Below the pieces are notes generated by a model. The model saw nothing but the letters and a program-made list of their open reading frames with translations, was not told the DNA's origin and ran no database searches. A stretch of DNA of 32,000 nucleotides from Candidatus Jordarchaeales archaeon. Its GTDB lineage: Archaea > Asgardarchaeota > Jordiarchaeia > Jordiarchaeales > Freyrarchaeaceae. The translations under genes were made by a program, and so were the position numbers. Positions 9,849-31,762 of this stretch are shown here, one piece after another. Each line of letters starts with the position of its first letter. Positions within the stretch are counted from its first letter, which is position 1. The stretch lies in NCBI GenBank assembly GCA_038889235.1, contig JAWAHN010000003.1, positions 413,703-445,702 of the forward strand, read 5' to 3'.

Positions 9849-11249
9849 TTGAGCAGGGGTTATGGTAAGGTTGACGAGGAAGTGCTTAGCAGGCTGGTCG
9901 ATGCTTTAGGCGAAAGGAACGTTAAAACAGACGTTGTCGAAAGGTACGCTTACTCAACTGATGCGTCACTTTTCAGCTCGCTTCCAGACGTTGTGGTGAC
10001 GCCGGAGAGCTGCAGCCAAGTTGTGGAAGTAGTAAAGATAGCCTCGGAAAAACGTATCCCGGTGACGCCTAGAGGCGGCGGGACAGGGCTGTGTGGTGGA
10101 GCGGTCCCCGTTTACGGTGGGATAGTCGTCGACATGAGCAAGATGAACAGGATACTGGAGGTGGACCTTGAAAACTTCTGTGTCGTCACCGAAGCCGGGG
10201 TTACCCCTGAAAATCTCAATAAGGAGCTTGCGAAACATGGCTTCTTCTTCCCTCCTTCTCCTGGAAGCAAGAGGATGTGCACAATAGGAGGCATGATCGC
10301 AACCAACGCTGGCGGAATGCACGCGGTGAAATACGGTGTCACAAGGAACTTCGTACTCGGACTAAAGCTGGTTATCCCTCCAGGAGAAGTCTTAAACTTA
10401 GGCGGCAAGGTTCTCAAGAGGTGTCTGGGCTATGATCTGATTCAGCTTGTCGTCGGCTCTGAGGGGACCCTTGGCATAATCACCGAGGCGACGCTCAGGA
10501 TACTGCCGTTGCCCGAGGAGTCAGCGGTCGTTGTCGCCTTCTTCGACGACATTTCTACCGCAGCTAAAGTGGTTAATGCCGTGCTCAGGAGGGTTGTACC
10601 CTCGGCGATAGAAATCCTGGATAGTAGATCGATAGAGGCTGTGAACCGCTATATGCCGTCACTCAACTTGCCACAGGCGGGGGCAGCCCTGTACTTCGAG
10701 GTTGAAGGAAGCAGGCCGGAGGTTGAAAGGCAGGTGCAAGTGATAGTGGAGGCGTGTAAGGCGCATGGTGGGAGAATTGAGTGGACCACCGATCCGAAGG
10801 AGAAGGAAAAGCTCTTGGCTGGAAGGGAAGTTGTCGGAGGAGCAATAATGAACGTAGATCAGAGGAGGGTGAGGGTTTACGAAGCCGAAGACGTCTGCGT
10901 CCCCATAGCTCAGCTCCCCCGCTTCGTTGAGGAGGCACACCGCATCTCGGAAAAGTACGGGGTTCCCGTCTGCATATATGGACACGCTGGGGATGGCAAC
11001 TGTCACTCCGGCATAATGATAGACCCAACTAACAGGGAGGAGTGGGTGAAGATGCGGGCGATGGCGAAGGAGATTTACGAACTAGCTGTGAGGCTTGGTG
11101 GGAACATAAGTGGGGAGCACGGAATAGGGCTGCTGAGGGCAGGGTACATGGAGAGCATAAATGAGAGAGCACTGCAGTTGATGAGAAAAGTGAAAGAGGC
11201 GTTTGACCCCCAGGGAATTCTCAACCCGGGGAAGATGGGGCTCGACTGA
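9849..11249 (+). CDS. FAD-linked oxidase, GlcD / D-lactate dehydrogenase family
   Basis: PRGGGTGLCGGA FAD-binding motif, TIGGMIATNAGG, GHAGDGNCH, GEHGIG, DPQGILNPGK. RBS GAGGTG at 9836-9841 suggests co-transcription with carB. Confidence 0.88.
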   Translation: MSRGYGKVDEEVLSRLVDALGERNVKTDVVERYAYSTDASLFSSLPDVVVTPESCSQVVEVVKIASEKRIPVTPRGGGTGLCGGAVPVYGGIVVDMSKMNRILEVDLENFCVVTEAGVTPENLNKELAKHGFFFPPSPGSKRMCTIGGMIATNAGGMHAVKYGVTRNFVLGLKLVIPPGEVLNLGGKVLKRCLGYDLIQLVVGSEGTLGIITEATLRILPLPEESAVVVAFFDDISTAAKVVNAVLRRVVPSAIEILDSRSIEAVNRYMPSLNLPQAGAALYFEVEGSRPEVERQVQVIVEACKAHGGRIEWTTDPKEKEKLLAGREVVGGAIMNVDQRRVRVYEAEDVCVPIAQLPRFVEEAHRISEKYGVPVCIYGHAGDGNCHSGIMIDPTNREEWVKMRAMAKEIYELAVRLGGNISGEHGIGLLRAGYMESINERALQLMRKVKEAFDPQGILNPGKMGLD

Positions 11250-12425: not shown

Positions 12426-13106
12426 TTGAGTGATGCTGTCACCCTTATTGCGCGTGCCGTTGGAGGAGTTGAAGCCCGCCTCATAATACTTAGAGAGCTT
12501 TTAAGTGGGCCGAAGACCGGGGTGGAGTTGAGGTATGCCCTCGCCAGGAGACTGGGTGTCCCCCCTAGGGCGATCTCGGATGCGAAGATATACTTCAACC
12601 TTCAGGCCTTAGAGAACAGCGGAATCATAGTACGCTATAGGGATTGGAAGAACAAGTACGCTGAAATAAACCCGAAAATGCTTCAAGCCGTGAGGAAGTA
12701 TTTGAACATCACTGCTCCTGTTATGTGCCTCGCAGCCCTAGACTCTGAGCCCCTCCTTACAAAAGAGATAGGGTGGCGTTTAAGGGAGCAAGAAGGAATA
12801 TCGCCTAGCAGGTACATTTTCATAGCGGAGGACAAAATGAGGGGGAAAATCGGGGGGTTGACGGGGGAAGCGGAAGTGCTGTGGGTTGACGACGAGACGC
12901 TCCACGACTACGAGAGGGTTTACGAAATCGCCGAGGAAGCCCTCAAGAAAGCTATCTCTAAATATGAACCCATAATCGATGTGACGGACGGGACGAGGGT
13001 GACGGTCGCAGCCTTCCAGCAGCTCGCGTGGGAGTATGGGCTCCGCGTCTTCTACCTCAAGGGGAAGCCTTACGAGAAGAGAAGGGTGGTCTGGATTAGG
13101 GGCTAG
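12426..13106 (+). CDS. Winged-HTH (ArsR/PadR-like) regulator with a C-terminal CARF-like domain
   Basis: N-terminal RLIILRELLSGPKTGVEL...IYFNLQALENSGII wHTH. C-terminal Rossmann-like domain with IIDVTDGTRVTVAAF...LAWEYGLRVFYL, resembling the CARF D-x-T-x-G-x-K/R motif. Start placed at TTG 12426 (GGTG RBS). The stop overlaps the comB stop (CTAG, 13103-13106). Confidence 0.65.
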   Translation: MSDAVTLIARAVGGVEARLIILRELLSGPKTGVELRYALARRLGVPPRAISDAKIYFNLQALENSGIIVRYRDWKNKYAEINPKMLQAVRKYLNITAPVMCLAALDSEPLLTKEIGWRLREQEGISPSRYIFIAEDKMRGKIGGLTGEAEVLWVDDETLHDYERVYEIAEEALKKAISKYEPIIDVTDGTRVTVAAFQQLAWEYGLRVFYLKGKPYEKRRVVWIRG

Positions 13107-13786
13107 TACTCGACGAACATGCCGCCTTTAATCACAGGCACCACGCTGCTCGCGTTTAGCTGGGAGCAGTACTCGACATCCCTCCAGAGTCCTATGGAGG
13201 CGAGTTCTTTGGCGCTCGGCGAGTTCAAGACGCACTCTTTGTAGTCCGGTGGCTCCCTTCCTTCGACAAAGCACTTTATAACGCACGCCGTCACATAGTC
13301 CTCCGGGCTAAACTCCCCTCTCCTCCCGACGTGGACCACAGTGAGCTTCCTCCCAGTCTTAGTAGCCTCACTTCCAGCTGCTTCAGCCACAGCAGAAGCG
13401 TTCCTCAGGCAGCCTGCAAATACGGCTGGAGCCCCCATCGCCTGGCAGACCGCTTGCGTGAAGTTAGTGGTGGTCAAGACTACTATCTTTCCCTCAACGA
13501 CGTCACGGGTAAACTCCAATGGGGAGTTGCCGAAATCGAAGCCGGGGATCTTCAGCCCTCGCCTCTCGCCCGCCAGCAGGACGCCAACCCCTCGAGTCCT
13601 CAAAAGCTCCCTCGCCTTTCCTACAGCTTCTTCAATAGTGAGCGCTGGGACGACGCCCACGCCTCCATTTTCTAGTATTGTTGTAACTGTGGTACTGGCT
13701 CTCAGCGTGTCCACTACAACCAATATGTGCCCCTTCAATGCGGCTCTTAGAGCGCCTTCGGCGCCGAATGCCAACCTAACTATCAT
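13103..13786 (-). CDS. comB: 2-phosphosulfolactate phosphatase
   Basis: VVDTLRASTT, LAGERRG, FDFGNSP, LTTTNFT, GCLRNASAVA, EDYVTA. ATGA overlap with comA. Confidence 0.92.
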   Translation of the reverse strand: MIVRLAFGAEGALRAALKGHILVVVDTLRASTTVTTILENGGVGVVPALTIEEAVGKARELLRTRGVGVLLAGERRGLKIPGFDFGNSPLEFTRDVVEGKIVVLTTTNFTQAVCQAMGAPAVFAGCLRNASAVAEAAGSEATKTGRKLTVVHVGRRGEFSPEDYVTACVIKCFVEGREPPDYKECVLNSPSAKELASIGLWRDVEYCSQLNASSVVPVIKGGMFVEY

Positions 13787-14580
13787 TTCAACCCCTTTAA
13801 GAGGAGGTCTGGCATCGTATCCCCTCTGAGCCCGAGACGCAACGTTTCGAGCGACACCACGTCCTCCGGGTGAATGTTACCAAGGTTAACGTCTGGACCA
13901 AACCTCTTAATCAGCCACACTTGTTGAGACCTTAGTGGAGCCTCCCATATGATCTTCTCGTGTGGAACGGCTTGCACGATTGACTCGACAAAGTCCTTCT
14001 TCACGTCCCCCTTCGCGTCATAGGGCCCTATTCCGATGCCGCTCTCCCTTGCTTCGACAACAACGTAGTCAGCCCCGGCTTCGAGTTCACGCTTCATCAG
14101 CTCAACTCTTTCCGTGAGGGGGATGGATGCGTCCTCCTCTGGCTTCTTCTTTCCAACCTCGGTGATCACAGGGTTAAAGCCAAACCTTTTAGCCAGCCTT
14201 AGCAGTCCAAGCTTTTCTTCAACATTCATTCTAACAATTCCGTTCGAGATTTCAAGCGAGGAAAAACCTAACTCGCGCAGGAAAGAAAGAAACTCCTCAA
14301 CCTTATCTCTGGCGTAGGCAGCCTCCACGCTCGATCCGCCTGGGAGCGCCATCACCCCAAACTCCTCACAAAGCTTAATCTTCTCCTTCACAACATTCAG
14401 GGGCATGATGAGCCAAGTGCACCAGCCAAACTTCCAAAGGTCAACGTACTCGCCCGCAGCCTCCAAAACACTACGCATTTCCGACACACCAATACCACGG
14501 TCGATTACCAAAGTTAAACCGCGCGACCTAGGTTTTGAGCACCGCTTCACGAGGGAGAGCTCAAACAACTGGGGACACAT
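13783..14580 (-). CDS. comA: Phosphosulfolactate synthase
   Basis: KPRSRGLTLVIDRG, VDLWKFGWCT, LEISNG, EVGKK, VVVEARESG, IIWEAP, VNLGNI, LETLRLGLRGDT. RBS GGTGGT. Confidence 0.95.
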   Translation of the reverse strand: MCPQLFELSLVKRCSKPRSRGLTLVIDRGIGVSEMRSVLEAAGEYVDLWKFGWCTWLIMPLNVVKEKIKLCEEFGVMALPGGSSVEAAYARDKVEEFLSFLRELGFSSLEISNGIVRMNVEEKLGLLRLAKRFGFNPVITEVGKKKPEEDASIPLTERVELMKRELEAGADYVVVEARESGIGIGPYDAKGDVKKDFVESIVQAVPHEKIIWEAPLRSQQVWLIKRFGPDVNLGNIHPEDVVSLETLRLGLRGDTMPDLLLKGLK

Positions 14581-14644
14581 AGCACCACCCGACCCATACT
14601 ACCAAAAAAATCGCCATTAAAATCTAGCGCGAAAGAAGGAAGGG

Positions 14645-14728
14645 AAAGGGCATCCCCCTGCTAGGGGGCGGTCCCCACCCCCGCTGGACCTTTCAGGGGA
14701 TGAGTCATCCCCAGCCCGGGAACCCTTT
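14645..14728 (-). promoter_or_regulatory. SECIS element (eukaryote-type core) in the 3' UTR of vhuU
   Basis: Minus strand: GCTGGGG-ATGA-CTCATCCCCTG-AAA-GGTCCAGC-GGGGGTGGG-GA-CCGCC-CCCTAGC. AUGA at 14705-14708, AAA at 14691-14693 (11 nt after the core), GA at 14672-14673, 9-bp upper helix, and lower helices GCTGGGG/CCCTAGC, TCCC/GGGA and AAAGGG/CCCTTT. Confidence 0.75.
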
Positions 14729-14876
14729 AAGACTCGCTCAGCTCAATAGTCTTCTCAGCGATTTTCTCGCCCTTGTGGTTGACGACAACCAGGTGGGCGG
14801 CACAACCAAGTCAGCAGTCGTAAGCCCGCATGATAACCTCAATCAAGTTTAAGAGTTTAGGATCCAACTCCACCAT
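14727..14876 (-). CDS. vhuU: [NiFeSe]-hydrogenase small selenopeptide subunit VhuU (49 aa, Sec at codon 22)
   Basis: Manual translation MVELDPKLLNLIEVIMRAYDC-U(TGA 14811-14813)-LGCAAHLVVVNHKGEKIAEKTIELSES*. This matches the hydrogenase L2 motif (RAYDPxxxCxxH). GGAGGT RBS at 14886-14891. The upstream large subunit lacks this motif. Confidence 0.92.
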
Positions 14877-14895
14877 AAGGTTCAAACCTCCCTAA

Positions 14896-16218
14896 CTACT
14901 TAAACCAAGGCTCCGGGAACTTAAGCTTCTCGTGAATTCTTTCCTCCAGAACCTGCTTAGCTGCGACCAACATCGACTTTTCAACCGCGGCGATGTTGTT
15001 GTTAGTCGCCACGATAAGGTTCGCCTTCCTTATTACACCTTCATCGTCAGTCCAATAGTTGTATATCAATGTTCCACGTGGCGCCTCGACGATAGCTACA
15101 CCGTTACCCTCCCTTGGACGCACGTCGGCACGCTTAACATCGGAGCTAACTATCTCAGGGTCTTCTAGGAGCTTCCTGGCTTTCTCTATGGCTTCCATTA
15201 GCTCGACTATCCTAGCCCAGTTGTAAGCCAGCGTTGCGTGGCATGGCCTCCCAACAGCGTCCCTGAACTCCTTAAGCAGCTCCTGAGCTCTGGGAGTCTC
15301 CATCTTGTCAGCTACGTTGAGCCTAGCTAGTGGGCCGGCTCGCCATATACCTTCGGGGTACCCTGCAGGCTTGAAGAATATGTGTGTCGCGTAGGAGTGA
15401 GGAGCAACGTGCTCGCCAACATACTGCAAGTAGTCTTTCTTCGGGAAGTCTGCCACAATCTTACCTTCAGGGTCCATAACCCTGACGGTTGCTTTCCTGT
15501 CGTAAATTGTGTGAACACCGTTAACATTCAGCCCAACATAGTAGGTTGGAACTACGCCAAGCTTCGTGATCACGTCCAAGTAGCCTTCAACAACTTTCCT
15601 CGCAACTTCAATAGTGAAGTCCATAAGTCCCTCTGCTTCGTCGATGAGCTTTAGCAGCCTGTCCCGCTCCTCCTCAGTAAGCCTTTTCGCTTGACCGCCC
15701 GGAACACCAGTCACCGGGTGAACTGAGCGGCCTCCGATGGTCTTAACAATCTCTTGGCCAATCCTCATCAGAGCGATGGCTTTCTTGACAGCGTCGGGCA
15801 TATGCTTGAAAACACCTACAAGGTTTCTAATCGACGGGTCGGCGAACGGTCCAGCGAGGAAGTCCGGGGCGGCTAGAGCGTAGAAGTGTAGAGCGTGACT
15901 TGAAATCTGCTTACCTTGCATCATCAGGTCTCTAAGCTTCACGGCAGCGCTGGGCGGTTCAACATCCCATGCTGCTTCAACAGCCTCAACCGAGCAGACG
16001 TGGTGGGGCACGGGGCATATGCCGCAGATACGTGGCGTCAGTATTGGTGCTTCTTCAGCAAGCCTGCCCTCAAGGAACTTTTCGAACATACGTGTCAGCG
16101 TAACACAGAACTTAAGGTCCTTTACTCCGCCTTTCTCGTCCAGCTCGATTACCACATTCGCGTGTCCTTCAAGCCTTGTCGCAGGCTCGATAACAACAGT
16201 CTTTTCCTTCTTGCTCAT
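14896..16218 (-). CDS. mvhA: F420-non-reducing (group 3c) hydrogenase large subunit, split type lacking the C-terminal L2 motif (VhuA/MvhA)
   Basis: EPATRLEGH, L1 motif PRICGICPVPHH, GPLARLN, VEAPRGTL, ATNNN. The protein ends at ...FPEPWFK without DPCxxC. Confidence 0.93.
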   Translation of the reverse strand: MSKKEKTVVIEPATRLEGHANVVIELDEKGGVKDLKFCVTLTRMFEKFLEGRLAEEAPILTPRICGICPVPHHVCSVEAVEAAWDVEPPSAAVKLRDLMMQGKQISSHALHFYALAAPDFLAGPFADPSIRNLVGVFKHMPDAVKKAIALMRIGQEIVKTIGGRSVHPVTGVPGGQAKRLTEEERDRLLKLIDEAEGLMDFTIEVARKVVEGYLDVITKLGVVPTYYVGLNVNGVHTIYDRKATVRVMDPEGKIVADFPKKDYLQYVGEHVAPHSYATHIFFKPAGYPEGIWRAGPLARLNVADKMETPRAQELLKEFRDAVGRPCHATLAYNWARIVELMEAIEKARKLLEDPEIVSSDVKRADVRPREGNGVAIVEAPRGTLIYNYWTDDEGVIRKANLIVATNNNIAAVEKSMLVAAKQVLEERIHEKLKFPEPWFK

Positions 16219-16232
16219 CTACCAACACCCAC

Positions 16233-17144
16233 CTACTTCTTTTTAGACACGGCTTTCGGTATTATCGAGGACGGTAAGGTAAACTTTGAGAACGTACCCA
16301 CAACGTCTTTGACTGATTGAACAAGCTCCTCTGGGCTAACCGACTCGTAGTCCACTATGCTCGCTAAGGCGCTGAGCATCTTTGCTCCCTGGTCTAAAAC
16401 GTTTGGTCCGGGGCCCATGCAGCCTCTGCACGGCACCCCCGCCCTCGTGCAAACGGCTCCACACCCCTCCCTGGTCGCTGGCCCCATGCATATGTAGCCC
16501 TGCTCTAAGAGGCATTTTTCGGGGTCAGGTATGCCTTCAAACGCCCTCTTAACCTTCTTTATGGTTATGACTTCCGATTTGACGCGTGGGCATTCGTCAC
16601 AAAGCGTCCTTTCCTTGAGCTTTGGCATTTCTCCTCTTAGTAAGCTGGTGACCACTTCAGCTATCAGGGGCGGCTCGGGCGGGCATCCCGGAAGGAAGAG
16701 GTCGTATTTAACGTACTCGCGGTTTGGCTTAACGTACTCGAGCATCTTGGGGACATGCATGTCCGGGATTTTCTTGTCGACAACGCTTTCGGCTTCCATG
16801 AACTTCCGCTTTAAGCCTTCATCTATCTGGTAGAGGTTTAGCAGCGCTGGGCTTCCGCCGTAAGTCGAACAGGTGCCGTATGATACGAGCAGCTTGCACT
16901 TCTGCCTTGCAAGTTTCAACAAGTATAAGTCTTCTTCCGTCCTACAGAAGCCCTCGGTGAACCCTACGTCGACCGAGCCGTCGGGGAGCTTTTCAACGTC
17001 ATGCAACTTGTAGTCTACTACGGTGTGCCAGTATACTATTTCAAGTTGAGGTAGGACGTCGGCGAGGGTTTCATGTAAGTCTACGAGACTCTGGTGGCAC
17101 CCCCAACAAGAGGCGAGTTGTACAAACATAACCTTTACAGGCAT
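16233..17144 (-). CDS. mvhG: F420-non-reducing hydrogenase small (Fe-S) subunit
   Basis: LASCWGCH, TEGFCR, GTCSTYGG, PGCPP, LCDECPR, CLLEQGYICMGPATREGCGAVC...PCRGCMGP. Confidence 0.93.
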   Translation of the reverse strand: MPVKVMFVQLASCWGCHQSLVDLHETLADVLPQLEIVYWHTVVDYKLHDVEKLPDGSVDVGFTEGFCRTEEDLYLLKLARQKCKLLVSYGTCSTYGGSPALLNLYQIDEGLKRKFMEAESVVDKKIPDMHVPKMLEYVKPNREYVKYDLFLPGCPPEPPLIAEVVTSLLRGEMPKLKERTLCDECPRVKSEVITIKKVKRAFEGIPDPEKCLLEQGYICMGPATREGCGAVCTRAGVPCRGCMGPGPNVLDQGAKMLSALASIVDYESVSPEELVQSVKDVVGTFSKFTLPSSIIPKAVSKKK

Positions 17145-17155
17145 ACGTCGCCCTC

Positions 17156-17575
17156 CTACTTAGCTTTTCGGAGCGGGCTTGGTCCGAGCTCCTTTAAAAT
17201 GTTAACGAACTCCTCAACGGTTTTCACAAGCTCTGCGCCCTCACTAGCTGAAATCCACCTTAACATAAGTCTTTCCGGCTCAATCCCTAACTGTTTAAGC
17301 ATCTCCCTTAGCAACGCTATTCTACGCTCAGCCCTGTAATTTCCTTTCACGTAGTGGCAGTCTCCGGGGTGGCAGCCCGCAACTAGGACGCCGTCAGCAC
17401 CCAGCTCGAAAGCCTTGAGCACGAATTGAGGGTCAACCCTACCGCTGCAGAGCACTCTAATAATTCTCACGTTTGGGGGGTACTGCATTCTACTAGTCCC
17501 AGCCATGTCGGCGCCAGCGTACGAGCACCAATTGCAAAATATGCCTAGTATTTTGGGTTCAAAGTCGTCTGACAA
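17156..17575 (-). CDS. mvhD: Hydrogenase/Hdr [2Fe-2S] delta subunit
   Basis: [40 protein letters not shown]. All Cys codons, no in-frame TGA. Confidence 0.96.
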
Positions 17576-17766
17576 TTTTTCATCTCCCTACTTTTTCGAG
17601 GGCGCTGAACTAAAATTTCGTATTCACGAAGAGCCTTTTAATATTTTAAGCTTTTGGGAGAATTCAACTTCCAGTTTTTACTCAAAGAGCTCAGGCTGGA
17701 AACAAAAAGATATTTATTTTTGACGATATGTTTGATTGGCTGATATAGCTTCGGGAAGGGGTTTCC
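17576..17766. promoter_or_regulatory. Divergent promoter region between mvhD and hdrA
   Basis: AT-rich intergenic region with TATA-like CTTTTAATATTTTAAG near 17635-17650 and AAAAGATATTTATTTT near 17704-17720. Confidence 0.5.
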
Positions 17767-19728
17767 ATGAGTGATAAGAAAGGCGCCGAGAACGTCCGCA
17801 TAGGAGTTTTCGTGTGCCATTGTGGTACCAATATTGCTGGGGTCATAAACGTCGAGGAGCTCGTCAAATACGCTTCCAAGCTTCCGGGGGTTGTTGTCGC
17901 TAAGGATTACCGTTTCATGTGTTCCGACCCGGGCCAGAACATGATTAAGGAGGCCATAAGAGACTATAAGCTTAACAGGGTTGTGGTCGCAGCCTGCAGC
18001 CCGAGGCTTCACGAGGAAACCTTTAGGAAAGCCGTGGAGGCTGCTGGTTTAAACCCGTTCCTATTCGAGATGGCGAACATTAGAGAGCACTCAAGCTGGG
18101 TTCACATGAGGAGGCCTAAGGAAGCGCTAGAAAAGGCTAAAGACTTGATTAGAATGGCTGTCGCGAAAGTTAGGGTCTCAGAGCCGTTGGAAGTTAAAAT
18201 GGTGCCTGTCAAGGGAACGTGCGTCATTATAGGTGGCGGCGTTGCCGGAATTTCGGCTGCACTCGACTTAGCTGACGCGGGCTTCAAAGTACATCTTGTT
18301 GAGTCGTCACCTTCAATCGGTGGGCGGATGGCACAGCTGGACAAGACTTTTCCAACCATGGACTGCTCCGCCTGCATACTGACACCGTTAATGGTGATGG
18401 TTGCCCGCCATCCGAACATTACGCTTCACGCTTACAGTGAGGTCGTGAGTGTTGACGGGTACGTGGGGAACTTCAAGGTAAAGATAAGAGAGAAGTCGAG
18501 GTACGTGAAGAAGGAAGCGTGCACAGGGTGCGGTCTCTGTACTGACGTCTGCCCAGTACATGTGCCAAACGAGTTCGAGCTGGGGCTCGGCGTGAGAAAA
18601 GCAATATACGTTCCCTTCCCCCAGGCGGTCCCCAACACTTACACTATAGATAGGGATAAGTGCATAGAGTGCGAGTTGTGCACCAAGGTCTGCGAGGCCA
18701 AAGCAATAGACTTCAACATGCAGGACAAGGAGATCGAGATTGAAGCCGGAACGATAATAGTGGCGACTGGATATGACATCTTCCAGCCCTACGAAATGTA
18801 CCAGTACGGCTATGGCAGGTACGAGAACGTGATAACTTCTCTCCACATGGAGAGGCTCCTCAGCGCATCTGGGCCAACTGGAGGAAAGGTGATTGTCCCG
18901 TCGAGTGGTGAGAAGCCCAAGCGCGTAGCTTTCGTTCAGTGTGTGGGCTCAAGGGACGAGCACTACTTCCCCTACTGCTCGAGGGTTTGTTGCATGTACA
19001 GCTTGAAACACGCGAGACAGATAAAGGAGAAGTACCCTGACACCGAAGTGTACATCTTCTTCATAGACGTGAGAGCTTTCGGCAAGGGTTACGAGGAGTT
19101 CTACGAGATGGCTGCCAGAGAGTACGATGTGAAGATAGTAAGGGGCAAAGTGGCTGAGATATACGAGGACCCGAAGACCAAGAAATTACTCGTTAGGGCT
19201 GAAGACAGCCTTGTAGGCGAGCCCATAGAAATGGAGTTCGACATGGTTGTTCTCGCCACAGCAGTCAAGCCAAGTGCGGGAGCTGAAAAGATACAGCAGA
19301 TACTGAAGCTCTCTAGAAGCGCGGACGGATTCTTCCTAGAAGCCCACCCCAAGCTGAGACCAGTAGACACGTTCACTGACGGAGTATTTGTGGCAGGTAT
19401 GGCCCAAGGTCCGAAGGATATACCGGACACCGTGGCGCAGGCTAAGGGTGCGGCTGCGAGGGCTGCAGCTCTCATGGGCAAGGGAGAGGTCGCGATAGAG
19501 CCGTACTACGCCGTGGTCAACGAGGAAATATGCTCCGGGTGCAAGACGTGCTCCGGGATCTGCCCATACGGGGCAATAAGCTACAACGAGGACGGCAGAG
19601 CAGTAATAAACAGCGCTCTATGCAAGGGCTGCGGTGCATGCGCGGCAGCATGCCCATCAAACGCGATAGAGCCAAACCACTTCAAGTTCCGCCAGATCAT
19701 GGAACAGATACTGGCGGCGTTCGAGTAA
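17767..19728 (+). CDS. hdrA: Heterodisulfide reductase subunit A (electron-bifurcating flavoprotein)
   Basis: GVFVCHCG, AACSPRLHE, GGGVAG, LDKTFPTMDCSACIL, CTGCGLCTDVCP, QCVGSRD...YCSRVCC, GPKDIP, and a C-terminal double ferredoxin. Confidence 0.97.
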   Translation: MSDKKGAENVRIGVFVCHCGTNIAGVINVEELVKYASKLPGVVVAKDYRFMCSDPGQNMIKEAIRDYKLNRVVVAACSPRLHEETFRKAVEAAGLNPFLFEMANIREHSSWVHMRRPKEALEKAKDLIRMAVAKVRVSEPLEVKMVPVKGTCVIIGGGVAGISAALDLADAGFKVHLVESSPSIGGRMAQLDKTFPTMDCSACILTPLMVMVARHPNITLHAYSEVVSVDGYVGNFKVKIREKSRYVKKEACTGCGLCTDVCPVHVPNEFELGLGVRKAIYVPFPQAVPNTYTIDRDKCIECELCTKVCEAKAIDFNMQDKEIEIEAGTIIVATGYDIFQPYEMYQYGYGRYENVITSLHMERLLSASGPTGGKVIVPSSGEKPKRVAFVQCVGSRDEHYFPYCSRVCCMYSLKHARQIKEKYPDTEVYIFFIDVRAFGKGYEEFYEMAAREYDVKIVRGKVAEIYEDPKTKKLLVRAEDSLVGEPIEMEFDMVVLATAVKPSAGAEKIQQILKLSRSADGFFLEAHPKLRPVDTFTDGVFVAGMAQGPKDIPDTVAQAKGAAARAAALMGKGEVAIEPYYAVVNEEICSGCKTCSGICPYGAISYNEDGRAVINSALCKGCGACAAACPSNAIEPNHFKFRQIMEQILAAFE

Positions 19729-19956
19729 CGCGAACACCCAACTGCACCTCTTATACCTCCCTTTCTTTTCTCTGCTCGAGCCGCACACTTCTTCGACACG
19801 TTTCTTCCTTAAGTTGCTGACCCTGTGATCGCCACGTTTTTCGCCTAATCAAACCTGTAACGTTTTAACAAAGCCCTAGACAAATAGAGGAAACTTTTTT
19901 ATAGAATGCGCTCGAAGGTAGAGGTGAATGCTGACCAAGCGCTTAAGGTGATTGAT

Positions 19957-20511
19957 TTGTCAACTACACAGCTCATCAAAAAGTTTGACACCGACTTCAC
20001 GCAAGAAGTCATAGAGTATGCTTCCAAGTTCTTCGAAAACGTGGAAAACGTGAAGAGCTGCATTCAATGCGCAACATGCACCGGGTCTTGCCCCAGCGGA
20101 CGCGAAACCGCCTGGCGAGTGAGAAAACTGATAAGGCAGATCCAGCTTGGACTTAAAAACGCAGCAATAAGAAACGACGTTTTATGGGATTGCACTACAT
20201 GCTACACCTGCCAGGAGAGGTGTCCCAGGCTTATCCCGATAACGGATATCGTTCGAGCCGTGAGAAACATTGCTGTCCGTAACGGGTTCATGCTACCCAG
20301 ACACGTCCAGGTAGCTGGCCTCATGATCAAGCACGGCCATGCTGTTCCGATCAATGATGAGGTGAAGGCGGTGAGGAAGGAGATAGGGTTAAGCGAGCTT
20401 CCACCCACCGTCCACTCATACCCCGACGCGCTGGGGGAGGTTAAAAAGCTGCTTGACGAGACTGGATTCACTAAGTTAGTGGAGGAAGCGTCTAAGGGGG
20501 TTCAGAAATGA
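19957..20511 (+). CDS. hdrC: Heterodisulfide reductase subunit C
   Basis: CIQCATCTGSCPSG and WDCTTCYTCQERCPR. Start placed at TTG 19957 (GGTGA RBS; a TATA-like TTTTTATA near 19895 overlaps the longer ORF start at 19906). Confidence 0.93.
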   Translation: MSTTQLIKKFDTDFTQEVIEYASKFFENVENVKSCIQCATCTGSCPSGRETAWRVRKLIRQIQLGLKNAAIRNDVLWDCTTCYTCQERCPRLIPITDIVRAVRNIAVRNGFMLPRHVQVAGLMIKHGHAVPINDEVKAVRKEIGLSELPPTVHSYPDALGEVKKLLDETGFTKLVEEASKGVQK

Positions 20512-21398
20512 GCAAGTACGCTTATTTCTTAGGTTGTTTAACCCCAAACAGGTATCCGGGTATTGAGGCGGCGACTATTGATCTTTTGAGGATGTTTGAC
20601 ATCGAACTTGACTACATGAAGGGTACTTCTTGCTGTCCTGCTCCGGGGGTTTTCGGTAGCTTCGACCTTGAAACTTGGCTCACTGTGGCGGCTAGGAACA
20701 TTTCGATTGCCGAGGAAATGGGGAGGGATATCACGCTGACTTGTAACGGTTGCTTTGCCACTCTCCAAGAAGCAGACCACATGCTTAAGGGTAACAGGGA
20801 GCTTGTGAAGCTTATTAACAACCACCTGTCGAAGGTTGGTAGGCAGTATAAGGGGACGGTCAACGTAGTCCACGTGATAGAAATACTCTACAACGAAATA
20901 GGGCCGGAGAAGATAAGGGATAGGGTTGTCCAGCCGCTTGACGGAATCAAAGTTGCCTGTCATTACGGCTGCCACTTCCTTAAGCCGAGCTCTGTGAGGC
21001 AGAAGGGCAACCCGGAGAACCCGACTATGCTTGAGGAGCTCGTTGAAGCCGTAGGTGCAACACCAGTAGAATACAAGGATAAGAAGATGTGCTGCGGGGC
21101 AGGAGGAGGGGTCAGAGCTGGGAAGATAGATGTAGCATTAGAGATGACGCGGAAGAAGCTCGACGCCATGATCGAGGCGGGAGCAGACTGCATAACTACT
21201 CCATGCGTTTTCTGCCAGTTCCAGTTTGACCAGGGTCAGACAGAGATCAACAACAAGCTTGGGGTTGAGAAGTACAAGGTGCCAGTTGTCTTCATAACGC
21301 AACTTATTGGGTTAGCGCTGGGCATATCGCCGAGAAGGATGGGACTACACCGCCACAGAATACCAGTCAAACCCGTGCTTGATAAGATTTTCCACTAG
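20508..21398 (+). CDS. hdrB: Heterodisulfide reductase subunit B
   Basis: Two CCG domains: YFLGC, SCCPAPG, TCNGCF, HYGCHFL, MCCGAGGG, TPCVFCQFQFD. Confidence 0.95.
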   Translation: MSKYAYFLGCLTPNRYPGIEAATIDLLRMFDIELDYMKGTSCCPAPGVFGSFDLETWLTVAARNISIAEEMGRDITLTCNGCFATLQEADHMLKGNRELVKLINNHLSKVGRQYKGTVNVVHVIEILYNEIGPEKIRDRVVQPLDGIKVACHYGCHFLKPSSVRQKGNPENPTMLEELVEAVGATPVEYKDKKMCCGAGGGVRAGKIDVALEMTRKKLDAMIEAGADCITTPCVFCQFQFDQGQTEINNKLGVEKYKVPVVFITQLIGLALGISPRRMGLHRHRIPVKPVLDKIFH

Positions 21399-23298: not shown

Positions 23299-24579
23299 TT
23301 AAACCAGCTGGTTGAGCAACTCTAGTAGTTCTACTACTTCGATTTTTGACCCGCTAGCGTTGACGGCGTCTCTCAGGTTCCTGACGCAGAACGGGCAGGA
23401 AGTCACTATGGCTTGGGCGCCTGTAGCCTCTGCTTCTTTAACTCTCTCTATGCCAGTCCACAGCGCGAGGTCGGGGAACTGGGTCTTAACTCCACCACCC
23501 GCTCCACAGCACCATGCGTCTTCCTTTATTCTGTACATTTCGACTAGTTGTAGGCCAGGTATTGCCTTGAGTATTTTCCTCGGAATCTCATACCACTCTT
23601 CTTTCTTCCTCTTGATCTCCCTCTCGTCGAGGAACCAGTTCGTGGACTTGGCTAGCTCCTCGCGTTCAAGATCGAGGGCTATGTGTCTCATGAGGTGGCA
23701 TGGGTCGTGCCAGGTTACCTTCTTGTTGTAGCTTCCCTTGAACTTTATCTTGCCCTGACCTATCAGGTCTGCTACCAGCTCGATAGTGTGCTTCGGAGTG
23801 AACGGCAGCTTGGATTTACTGTACTTGGGGTAGTCTACCTTGAATGTCCTGTAGCACCCGGCGCAGCTGAACACGAGCGTATCATAGTCCTTGAACGTCT
23901 TAAGGTTCTCGTTCATAACTCTCTTAGCCTCACTCCGCTGCCCCGTTCTGAAGAGCGGGGAGCCGCAGCAGACCTCGTCTTCGAGCACCGCGAACTCTAT
24001 TCCAAGCTTGTTCAAAAGTTCAGCGGTCGCCTTAGCGACCTGCTTCTCTCTGTATGAAGCGGTGCAACCGACGAAGTATGCGACTTTGGCATCCTTCTTG
24101 GGCTTGACCTTTGTTCCTTCAAGCCACTTAGTTCTATCCTCGTGTTTTTCAGCGTACGGGTTGTTAACCTGACTTATGTTCTTGCCTAGAGCAGCGGTCT
24201 TGGGCAGTAATGGGATGCCCGCCTCGACACAGGCCGCCCTCGCAGCCTCAATAAGCTCGACGGTGGGCAGCTTGTTCTCGCACTGCGCCTGGCAGTTGCC
24301 GCATGTAGTGCAGGGGTAAATTAGGTCTCTCACACTTTCACTTGGTACAAGGCTTCCTTCAAGCATCGACCTGATAATCCACATTCTTCCACTGTTTAGG
24401 TAGCCTTCCCAAAGCTTGTAGTAAGATCCAGAGGGGCACCCTTCTATCATTCCTTCGTAAAGCGTGCCTTTGTACTCTCCGATGCCCTCCCTGTCTGGTT
24501 CTCCTGAGTAGGAGAACATGCATGCTTTGCAGTGTATGCACCTGAACAGTTCCTTCTTTAATGCTAGTAGGTCTTCCAT
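23299..24579 (-). CDS. HdrD/GlcF-like Fe-S oxidoreductase (2x[4Fe-4S] plus two CCG domains)
   Basis: CIHCKAC...CP, CTTCGNCQAQC, YFVGC, VCCGSP, FSCAGC, WHDPCH, CCGAGGG, TSCPFC. Start placed at ATG 24579. TATA-like AAAAAGTTTAAAAA lies upstream. Confidence 0.85.
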   Translation of the reverse strand: MEDLLALKKELFRCIHCKACMFSYSGEPDREGIGEYKGTLYEGMIEGCPSGSYYKLWEGYLNSGRMWIIRSMLEGSLVPSESVRDLIYPCTTCGNCQAQCENKLPTVELIEAARAACVEAGIPLLPKTAALGKNISQVNNPYAEKHEDRTKWLEGTKVKPKKDAKVAYFVGCTASYREKQVAKATAELLNKLGIEFAVLEDEVCCGSPLFRTGQRSEAKRVMNENLKTFKDYDTLVFSCAGCYRTFKVDYPKYSKSKLPFTPKHTIELVADLIGQGKIKFKGSYNKKVTWHDPCHLMRHIALDLEREELAKSTNWFLDEREIKRKKEEWYEIPRKILKAIPGLQLVEMYRIKEDAWCCGAGGGVKTQFPDLALWTGIERVKEAEATGAQAIVTSCPFCVRNLRDAVNASGSKIEVVELLELLNQLV

Positions 24580-24953
24580 TTCGCCATCCCCACGATACAT
24601 TAATTTAGTTTATTTTTTAAACTTTTTGTTCCGCACAGAGGGGGTTTTCGTCTCTCCATCGAAGAGTACTGGATATAAATTTTGTGTCGCAACCCCCTTG
24701 CAGGCAGCTTCTTCGAACATATTAACCCTAAAAACGTGGACACTACTCCACTCTAACCCAGCCCTCTTTAAGAACCACCTGCTGGTTTTTCACCCAGTCG
24801 CTTCGCGTCAGCCGTTGAGGGCGCTGCCGTTTGCCGCTCCCGCCGCCACATGTTTTTCTCTACAAGTTCTCCGTTTTAGCCTGCATCGACTTGAAAAAGC
24901 GCAGCCCTAACTTGCCTCTGCGACACTATACTATGCGGGGCTTGTGTATCTCG

Positions 24954-31246: not shown

Positions 31247-31762
31247 TTGCTTGCCGGCAAACTGAGGGAGTTGCTTAAGGGGGCACGTAGGGTCGCAGTG
31301 ATAGGCGTGGGGAGCAGGTTTAGGGGGGATGACGCGCTAGGTCTGGAAGTAGCCAGGAGGCTTAAAGGAGCCGGGCTGAGGGGCGTGCTGGTGGTGGAGG
31401 CTGAAACCGTGCCTGAGAACTTCACAGGCGAGCTTAGAAGGTTCCACCCAAGCCACGTCTTGCTCGTGGACGCAGCGCACTTTGGAGGTAAACCGGGGGA
31501 TGTCGTCGTAGCGTCCGGCTCCTCATCCATGCGCGGAGTTTCTTTCTCGACGCACCACATGCCGCTTTCCATGTTCGCAAGATTCGTTGAGGCATCAATA
31601 GGCTCAACGGTCGTCCTGGTTGGGGTCCAGCCGGGTAGCCTCCACGGGGAGGGGCTCTCACCCGAGGTGGAAGACGCGGTGTCAATTCTCACAAAGATTT
31701 TAAGCGAAGTCCTTTCAGAATTACCGGGCTTAGAGGCGGTGTCCGAAATTGGAGAGAATTAG
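31247..31762 (+). CDS. hycI: Hydrogenase maturation endopeptidase (HycI-like)
   Basis: VIGVGSRFRGDDALG, ETVPENFT, LVDAAHFG, STHHMPL, VGVQP...EGLSPEV. Confidence 0.9.
   Translation: MLAGKLRELLKGARRVAVIGVGSRFRGDDALGLEVARRLKGAGLRGVLVVEAETVPENFTGELRRFHPSHVLLVDAAHFGGKPGDVVVASGSSSMRGVSFSTHHMPLSMFARFVEASIGSTVVLVGVQPGSLHGEGLSPEVEDAVSILTKILSEVLSELPGLEAVSEIGEN

Follow-up and report, generated by a model that had tools for sequence, protein, structure and literature searches.

Here we report that a gene of 49 codons, vhuU, follows the hydrogenase large subunit gene in a window of DNA from a hot-spring Candidatus Jordarchaeales archaeon (the whole stretch of 32,000 nucleotides that was analysed), and that its single in-frame UGA is very probably read as selenocysteine (Sec) in a functional peptide. 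The best explanation of the locus is that VhuU supplies the C-terminal nickel ligands, Sec22 and Cys25, to a naturally split group 3c [NiFeSe] hydrogenase, MvhD-VhuG-VhuA-VhuU. The gene and its conserved UGA are accompanied by a covarying SECIS element and by a complete Sec machinery in the genome, and the peptide and the large subunit are homologous to both split and unsplit enzymes of solved structure.

The vhuU gene and its peptide

The gene lies at 14727-14876 (-), from an ATG at 14876-14874 to a TAA at 14729-14727, and starts 20 nt past the vhuA stop codon (TAG, 14898-14896). A ribosome-binding site, GGGAGGT (14886-14892 (-)), was read directly 9 nt before the ATG. A small ORF with its own ribosome-binding site at this distance from the large subunit had been proposed in an earlier note on this DNA, and direct reading bears out both its coordinates and its peptide. 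Read with table 11, the frame ends at codon 21; with its only in-frame TGA (14811-14813 (-)) read as U it runs MVELDPK...RAYD-C-U-LGCAAH. The predicted selenocysteine, residue 22, thus occupies the first-Cys position of the C-terminal Ni-binding motif, here D20-C21-U22-L-G-C25-A-A-H28, and a C-terminal extension of 21 residues follows His28.

A search of the readthrough peptide against the C-termini of VhuU and MvhA proteins, as the earlier note had recommended, gave matches of both kinds. The top NCBIfam match is VhuU (NF041786), at 57.4 bits and E 9e-16 with U entered as C, against an equivalog cut-off of 70; this model and the corresponding VhuA model, NF041785, appear to be built on Methanococcales. 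The peptide also aligns to residues 422-450 of the unsplit MvhA (PDB 9sw2_F, E 1.8e-6; also 5odc_F), where U falls on the leading Cys of DPCLSCATH, and to the 27-aa chain 9sfi_M (E 1.2e-4), with U in the column of the Sec of that chain, written X. All three alignments (9sw2_F, 5odc_F and 9sfi_M) place the TGA where the earlier note had put it, on the first Cys of a DPCxxCxxH motif; the proline of that motif did not stand, the residue preceding Sec being Cys (D-C-U). A genome search for a second VhuU-like C-terminus returned one match, vhuU itself.

The split hydrogenase operon and its neighbours

Upstream of vhuU, and on the same strand, lie vhuA (14896-16218 (-)), which encodes a [NiFe(Se)] hydrogenase large subunit of 440 aa, vhuG/mvhG (16233-17144 (-); Pfam Oxidored_q6, NCBIfam VhuG 289 bits), which encodes the small subunit, and mvhD/vhuD (17156-17575 (-); Pfam FlpD, E 9e-58), which encodes the delta subunit. 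The operon order is therefore mvhD-vhuG-vhuA-vhuU, and it is divergent from hdrA (17767-19728 (+)), hdrC (19906-20511 (+)) and hdrB (20508-21398 (+)), identified by Pfam matches and, for hdrA, by translation. This arrangement supports the assignment to group 3c made in the earlier note. All of vhuA, vhuG, mvhD and hdrABC are intact; MvhD (with CNWC and GCHPGDC) and HdrA are both all-cysteine forms, and translation of the mvhD gene of the cluster revealed no in-frame TGA.

VhuA has the N-terminal ligand motif R63-I-C65-G-I-C68 and lacks the C-terminal D-P-C-x-x-C-x-x-H, as had been noticed before; direct reading and the Pfam NiFeSe_Hases model, which matches the N-terminal part only, agree on this. 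Its best solved relative is 9sfi_g, the 418-aa alpha chain of 9sfi/9t1s (E 2.7e-141, residues 8-423 onto 4-416), followed by the unsplit MvhA (5odc_F, E 1.5e-114; also 9sw2). VhuA covers residues 5-417 of MvhA and VhuU residues 422-450, and the two proteins therefore tile the unsplit enzyme. The top NCBIfam match of vhuA is VhuA (NF041785; 513.9 bits, E 2e-154, against an equivalog cut-off of 800) and that of mvhD is VhuD (142 bits). VhuU, VhuA, VhuG and VhuD are thus each the top match of their gene, and all four score below curated equivalog cut-offs that appear to be tuned to Methanococcales. Together with 9sfi as the closest solved relative, these matches uphold the proposal of a split VhuA with a separate Sec peptide.

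Several neighbouring genes deserve mention in their own right. Directly downstream of vhuU lie comA (phosphosulfolactate synthase) and comB (2-phosphosulfolactate phosphatase), together at 13103-14580 (-), so that coenzyme M biosynthesis genes have been kept beside Mvh/Hdr in an Asgard archaeon without a methanogenesis context, an arrangement consistent with the CoM/CoB heterodisulfide that Sun et al. 2021 proposed. The Hdr/Vhu cluster is also flanked by a FAD-linked oxidase resembling D-lactate dehydrogenase (9849-11249 (+)) and by an HdrD-like protein with CCG and Fer4_8 domains (23299-24600 (-)), a pair that matches the Dld-HdrD pairing described for Jordarchaeia.

The SECIS element

A eukaryote-like SECIS element occupies 14648-14717 (-) in the vhuU 3' UTR, as defined by an RNAalifold consensus, a covariance model and pair counts. 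It begins 10 nt past the TAA, with its core ~103 nt past the UGA. The lower stem pairs GGGC (14717-14714) with GCCC (14651-14648) and continues as GG/CC beside the core, which is made up of AUGA (14708-14705) and GA (14673-14672). Above the core, an upper helix of 9 bp (14704-14696 with 14682-14674) carries an apical loop of 13 nt, UGAAAGG... (14695-14683), and a side hairpin, CCCCC/GGGGG (14668-14664 with 14658-14654), completes the structure. This layout is that of the lokiSECIS, or eSECIS-like type I, element of Mariotti et al. 2016 and of Huang et al. 2024.

The 3' UTRs of seven sequences share the lower stem, an (A/C/U)UGA, the 9-bp helix and a GA or AA, with AUGA_AA, CUGA_GA or UUGA_GA as core variants in the relatives and, at the start of the apical loop, an AAA that is invariant (7/7). 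A covariance model built from four of them finds the three untrained Freyarchaeia/Jordarchaeum elements with E values of 1e-10 to 1e-4. Counted on the model-guided alignment, which is biased in favour of the structure, 94.9% of cells are paired; sliding the partners lowers this to 47-64%. Compensatory changes occur in 5 of the 9 upper-helix pairs. That alignment was chosen because the first MAFFT alignment of the seven UTRs was one column off for the Freyarchaeia group. Since the side hairpin never varies, the covariation supports the main helix only. When the 3' UTR was folded alone, the single-sequence minimum free energy structure (MFE; z-score -1.8) differed from the SECIS fold, which emerged only from the alignment, and an Rfam scan (release 15, E<=10) of 14400-15000 gave two chance matches and no SECIS family. 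The covariance model, R1, includes the side hairpin and is too specific to vhuU to list the other SECIS elements of the genome, in which it yields one extra match.

The main SECIS helix covaries freely while the side-hairpin sequence, CCCCC-N5-GGGGG between the GA and the lower stem, stays invariant across the Jordarchaeia/Freyarchaeia set (the window and six loci, L022-L027); the hairpin might bind a protein, belong to a terminator or simply act as a structural brace.

The selenocysteine machinery

The genome examined (2.14 Mb in 8 contigs, 95% complete) encodes each component of the Sec pathway that was sought, namely tRNA-Sec, SelD, PSTK, SepSecS and SelB. SepSecS (497.6 bits) and SelB (306 bits) are adjacent genes and score above their cut-offs, as does SelD (151.6 bits), which has an in-frame UGA of its own in KLHG-U-ACKLP; PSTK is present with E 8e-57, at 192 bits against an equivalog cut-off of 290. 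The tRNA-Sec(UCA) gene lies at C1:335995-336137 (-) and is 143 nt long, with putative introns of 20 nt in the D-loop, 12 nt at 37/38 and 18 nt in the T-loop. The predicted spliced form of 93 nt is called tRNA-SeC(tca) by ARAGORN, and its MFE structure is a 9/4 cloverleaf with a 9-bp acceptor, a 7-bp D-stem, a 6-bp anticodon stem and a 4-bp T-stem. With this set of genes and the covarying SECIS, the suggestion in the earlier note that the organism decodes UGA as Sec is supported.

Because three introns interrupt it, the tRNA-Sec gene is invisible to standard finders: ARAGORN did not find it in the unspliced genome with or without intron mode, and the Rfam model RF01852 missed it in this genome and in 12 relatives, where the best matches were to tRNA-Leu, tRNA-Arg, tRNA-Met and tRNA-Ser. 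Four descriptor scans allowing at most one intron did not find it either. The ARAGORN and descriptor scans of the genome revealed no other tRNA candidate with a UCA anticodon.

Besides its Sec UGA, selD (C1:553126-554240 (+)) has a +1 frame break near 553441-553471, where 31 nt containing a CACAGCC/GGCTGTG hairpin lie between ...SDVY and AKGATEIVGFLAVLGVP.... Judged by its sequence, this insert looks like a tRNA-type (bulge-helix-bulge) intron in a protein-coding mRNA rather than a frameshift.

Another candidate selenoprotein

At C1:85197-85611 (+) (L038:1165-1579) an ORF of 112 codons carries one in-frame TGA (...EEVYS-U-RGSRIEV...) and, at its stop codon, a SECIS-like element that combines AUGA and GA with a stem of 9 bp, a loop reading AUAAAG and a side hairpin; this element is the second-best match of the vhuU SECIS model. 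The best family match of the ORF is a weak one, to NCBIfam NF041239, 'CC/Se motif family (seleno)protein', with E 1e-4 and a score under the cut-off. Homologues with down to 30% identity occur in 9 of 61 sampled Asgard genomes, each with exactly one TGA. The seven families of Asgard selenoproteins in Huang et al. 2024 (PMC11227280) do not include this one.

Decoding of the UGA codon

A search of 201 Asgard genomes produced 103 strong VhuU matches (E<=5e-7), all of them in open frames of 42-85 codons; the weaker matches were the C-termini of unsplit subunits of 400-515 aa. Exactly one TGA is present in 101 of the strong matches, and the two without a TGA indicate that Cys forms of the split peptide exist. 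These two Cys forms lend something to the view that UGA is here read as an amino acid other than Sec (Cys or Trp, for example, by near-cognate or suppressor decoding), with an ordinary [NiFe] enzyme made from split genes as the outcome, and so do the Cys that adjoins the UGA in D-C-U, which leaves a thiol available nearby, and the fact that the Sec call comes from sequence and not from selenium chemistry. We nevertheless consider such decoding improbable, for the Sec pathway is full and intact with its tRNA-Sec(UCA), a covarying SECIS stands at the expected place, the solved VhuU of Methanococcus has Sec at this very codon, and the scans offered no other UCA-anticodon tRNA that could read the codon.

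The relatives of VhuA in public genomes are those of Candidatus Jordarchaeum/Jordarchaeia and Freyarchaeota metagenome-assembled genomes (MAGs), at 68-89% identity. The split, the 49-codon vhuU and its TGA are kept in all six Jordarchaeia/Freyarchaeia relatives that were fetched, whose motif reads Y-D-C-U-L-[GSA]-C-[GSA]-A-H and whose frame is preserved before and after the TGA. An unsplit homologue, with DPC, occurs in Bathyarchaeia. In four of the six relatives vhuU ends at a second UGA, which doubles as the UGA of the SECIS core (L023:4514-4516, L024:4482-4484, L025:4485-4487 and L026:1731-1733), and the same gene therefore has UGA for Sec at one position and for termination 28 codons later. 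The occurrence of the same ORF, TGA and downstream structure in six relatives and ~100 Asgard genomes goes far beyond chance.

A contig assembled from a metatranscriptome (X4), from a strain 95-99% identical, spans 14642-14978 and so includes the SECIS, vhuU and the 3' end of vhuA. Inside vhuU it differs at three positions (14757, 14841 and 14856), all synonymous third positions, two before the UGA and one after, which argues for selection on the whole vhuU frame. The RNA contig stops at 14642, just past the SECIS, and DNA contigs continue beyond that point, an observation from the contigs of one study. As the RNA data are assembled contigs from a single metatranscriptome of a related strain, with DNA carry-over possible, expression of vhuU is suggested and not proven.

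That UGA is a true stop, with vhuU a decaying remnant and the hydrogenase either inactive or completed by another gene, agrees with the table 11 frame and with the omission of the ORF from public gene calls. It is hard to reconcile with the protein-level conservation of the post-UGA sequence in relatives as little as 50% identical, with a co-occurring strain that differs after the UGA only by a synonymous change, with a TGA kept in ~100 genomes, with the lack of a second VhuU-like C-terminus in the genome and with intact vhuA, vhuG, mvhD and hdrABC genes, and we hold it to be very improbable.

Nothing was found in favour of the TGA being an error of sequencing or assembly, or a nonsense change from TGC/TGT confined to one strain, and the chance that this view is correct is negligible: the identical TGA occurs in an independent hot-spring metagenome from a different study (X2, with 14550-17650 in one contig and two changes, both away from the TGA, of which one, at 14694, falls within the apical loop of the SECIS), in another sample (X3), in the RNA-library contig X4 and in six separately assembled relatives. 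The absence of any difference at 14811-14813 in X2 and X4 excludes a sequencing error, and the relatives refute the nonsense reading, both being eventualities that the earlier note had itself raised.

A model for the split enzyme

Decoding of the UGA as Sec in a working VhuU suggests the following course of events. Transcription of the operon would run through vhuU and end just past the SECIS in its 3' UTR. tRNA-Sec would be made via SerRS, PSTK and SepSecS, with selenophosphate derived from SelD, and delivered by SelB/EFSec; Sec would then be inserted at the UGA (14813-14811) under the direction of the SECIS, whose AUGA/GA kink-turn lies ~100 nt downstream. Once Ni-Fe has been inserted, the tail of ~21 residues following His28 would be cut off by a HycI-type protease, and the short mature peptide would pack against VhuA in the manner of the solved enzyme from Methanococcus, the assembled MvhD-VhuG-VhuA-VhuU working with the adjacent HdrABC. 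The actual insertion of Sec, the site at which the tail is cleaved and the direction of catalysis are points that we infer. A gene in the window for a HycI-family hydrogenase maturation endopeptidase (31247-31762 (+); PF01750 53.5 bits, NCBIfam hydrog_prot 93.5 bits and above cut-off) is a candidate for removing the VhuU extension, and a second gene of this family lies at C2:186261-186641.

Annotation of vhuU

On a practical level, a public record with an identical VhuA (GCA_038822405.1, JAWBDI010000012.1) lacks a called gene in the interval from vhuA to comA, just as the earlier note had foreseen of gene callers in general. The vhuU gene and its SECIS have already been published for Asgard archaea, Jordarchaeia included (PMC4989117; supplement of PMC11227280); the value of the present analysis lies in annotation repair. 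With vhuU uncalled and tRNA-Sec hidden, automated pipelines would score this genome as having neither a functional hydrogenase large subunit nor the Sec trait, and metabolic reconstructions of hot-spring Jordarchaeia, in which H2 is cycled through Mvh-Hdr, depend on recognising vhuU.

Comparison with known systems

The Lokiarchaeota VhuU, a Sec peptide of ~50 aa, and its SECIS were described in 2016 (Mariotti et al., PMC4989117), where a stop UGA that forms part of the AUGA core is already recorded for Loki VhuU.1. In Huang et al. 2024 (PMC11227280), FrhA/MvhA/VhuU is a widespread Asgard selenoprotein family, and the supplement holds 116 YDCX and 66 FDCX peptides, including Jordarchaeia_GCA_019056875_U. 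A 2021 study (PMC9723677) found Sec machinery and tRNA-Sec in Jordarchaeia and listed only HdrA, Prx and MvhD as selenoproteins. The present gene resembles the published Asgard VhuU genes in its length of ~50 codons, its one Sec where the motif has its first Cys, its D-C-U dyad, its place directly after a truncated vhuA and an intron-interrupted tRNA-Sec; the SECIS likewise lies near the stop, with AUGA and GA (or AA) flanking a stem of 9 bp and with adenines in the apical loop. It differs in coming from another species, with a VhuA 89% identical to that of a named Jordarchaeum MAG, in having an apical loop of 13 nt where 11 nt are reported for Loki (PMC4989117), and in the invariant hairpin that the Jordarchaeia/Freyarchaeia set carries between GA and lower stem.

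With the Methanococcales VhuA/VhuU (NF041785/NF041786; PDB 9sfi/9t1s, chains g and M) the locus shares the split point, with Sec aligned on Sec, and with the F420-non-reducing [NiFeSe] hydrogenase of that order it shares the gene order D-G-A-U. The earlier note had named Methanococcales and Lokiarchaeia as encoding the split VhuA/VhuU, in agreement with PDB 9sfi and PMC4989117. In contrast to the methanococcal operon, there is no vhuB polyferredoxin gene after vhuU, its place being taken by comA and comB, and the SECIS is of the eukaryote-like AUGA/GA type instead of the methanococcal GAA_A type.

A further difference is that Sec is preceded by Cys here and by Pro in Methanococcales: the peptides in the supplement of Huang et al. 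2024 have D-C-U in all Asgard VhuU (116 YDCX, 66 FDCX) and D-P-U in Methanococcales (17 YDPX), and Cys-type enzymes carry D-P-C at this position. No discussion of this difference was found in the accessible text of that paper (PMC11227280). It is conceivable, and in our estimation unlikely, that the D-C-U dyad, the invariant side hairpin or both point to a mechanism unlike that of the methanococcal enzyme and signal. On such a reading of the sequences, a selenenylsulfide formed within the Cys-Sec dyad could protect or gate the Sec that ligates Ni, and the side hairpin could be an extra docking site for an Asgard SECIS-binding factor; published surveys of Asgard archaea found no SBP2.

Unsplit relatives complete the comparison. 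Like the Cys-type MvhA of the Mvh-Hdr complexes (PDB 5odc and 9sw2), the enzyme belongs to group 3c and has MvhD, MvhG and HdrABC as partners, whereas MvhA there is one polypeptide with Cys in place of Sec. Homologues in deltaproteobacterial MAGs (L029-L031) have a large subunit 45% identical and a UGA at the same motif position (RAYD-P-U-LSCATH), but are unsplit with Pro before Sec; as these are bacterial, a SECIS within the coding region and SelA/SelB are to be expected there. The locus described here confirms the published picture that Jordarchaeia, like other Asgard archaea, make a split, Sec-containing Mvh/Vhu hydrogenase and decode UGA via a eukaryote-like SECIS.
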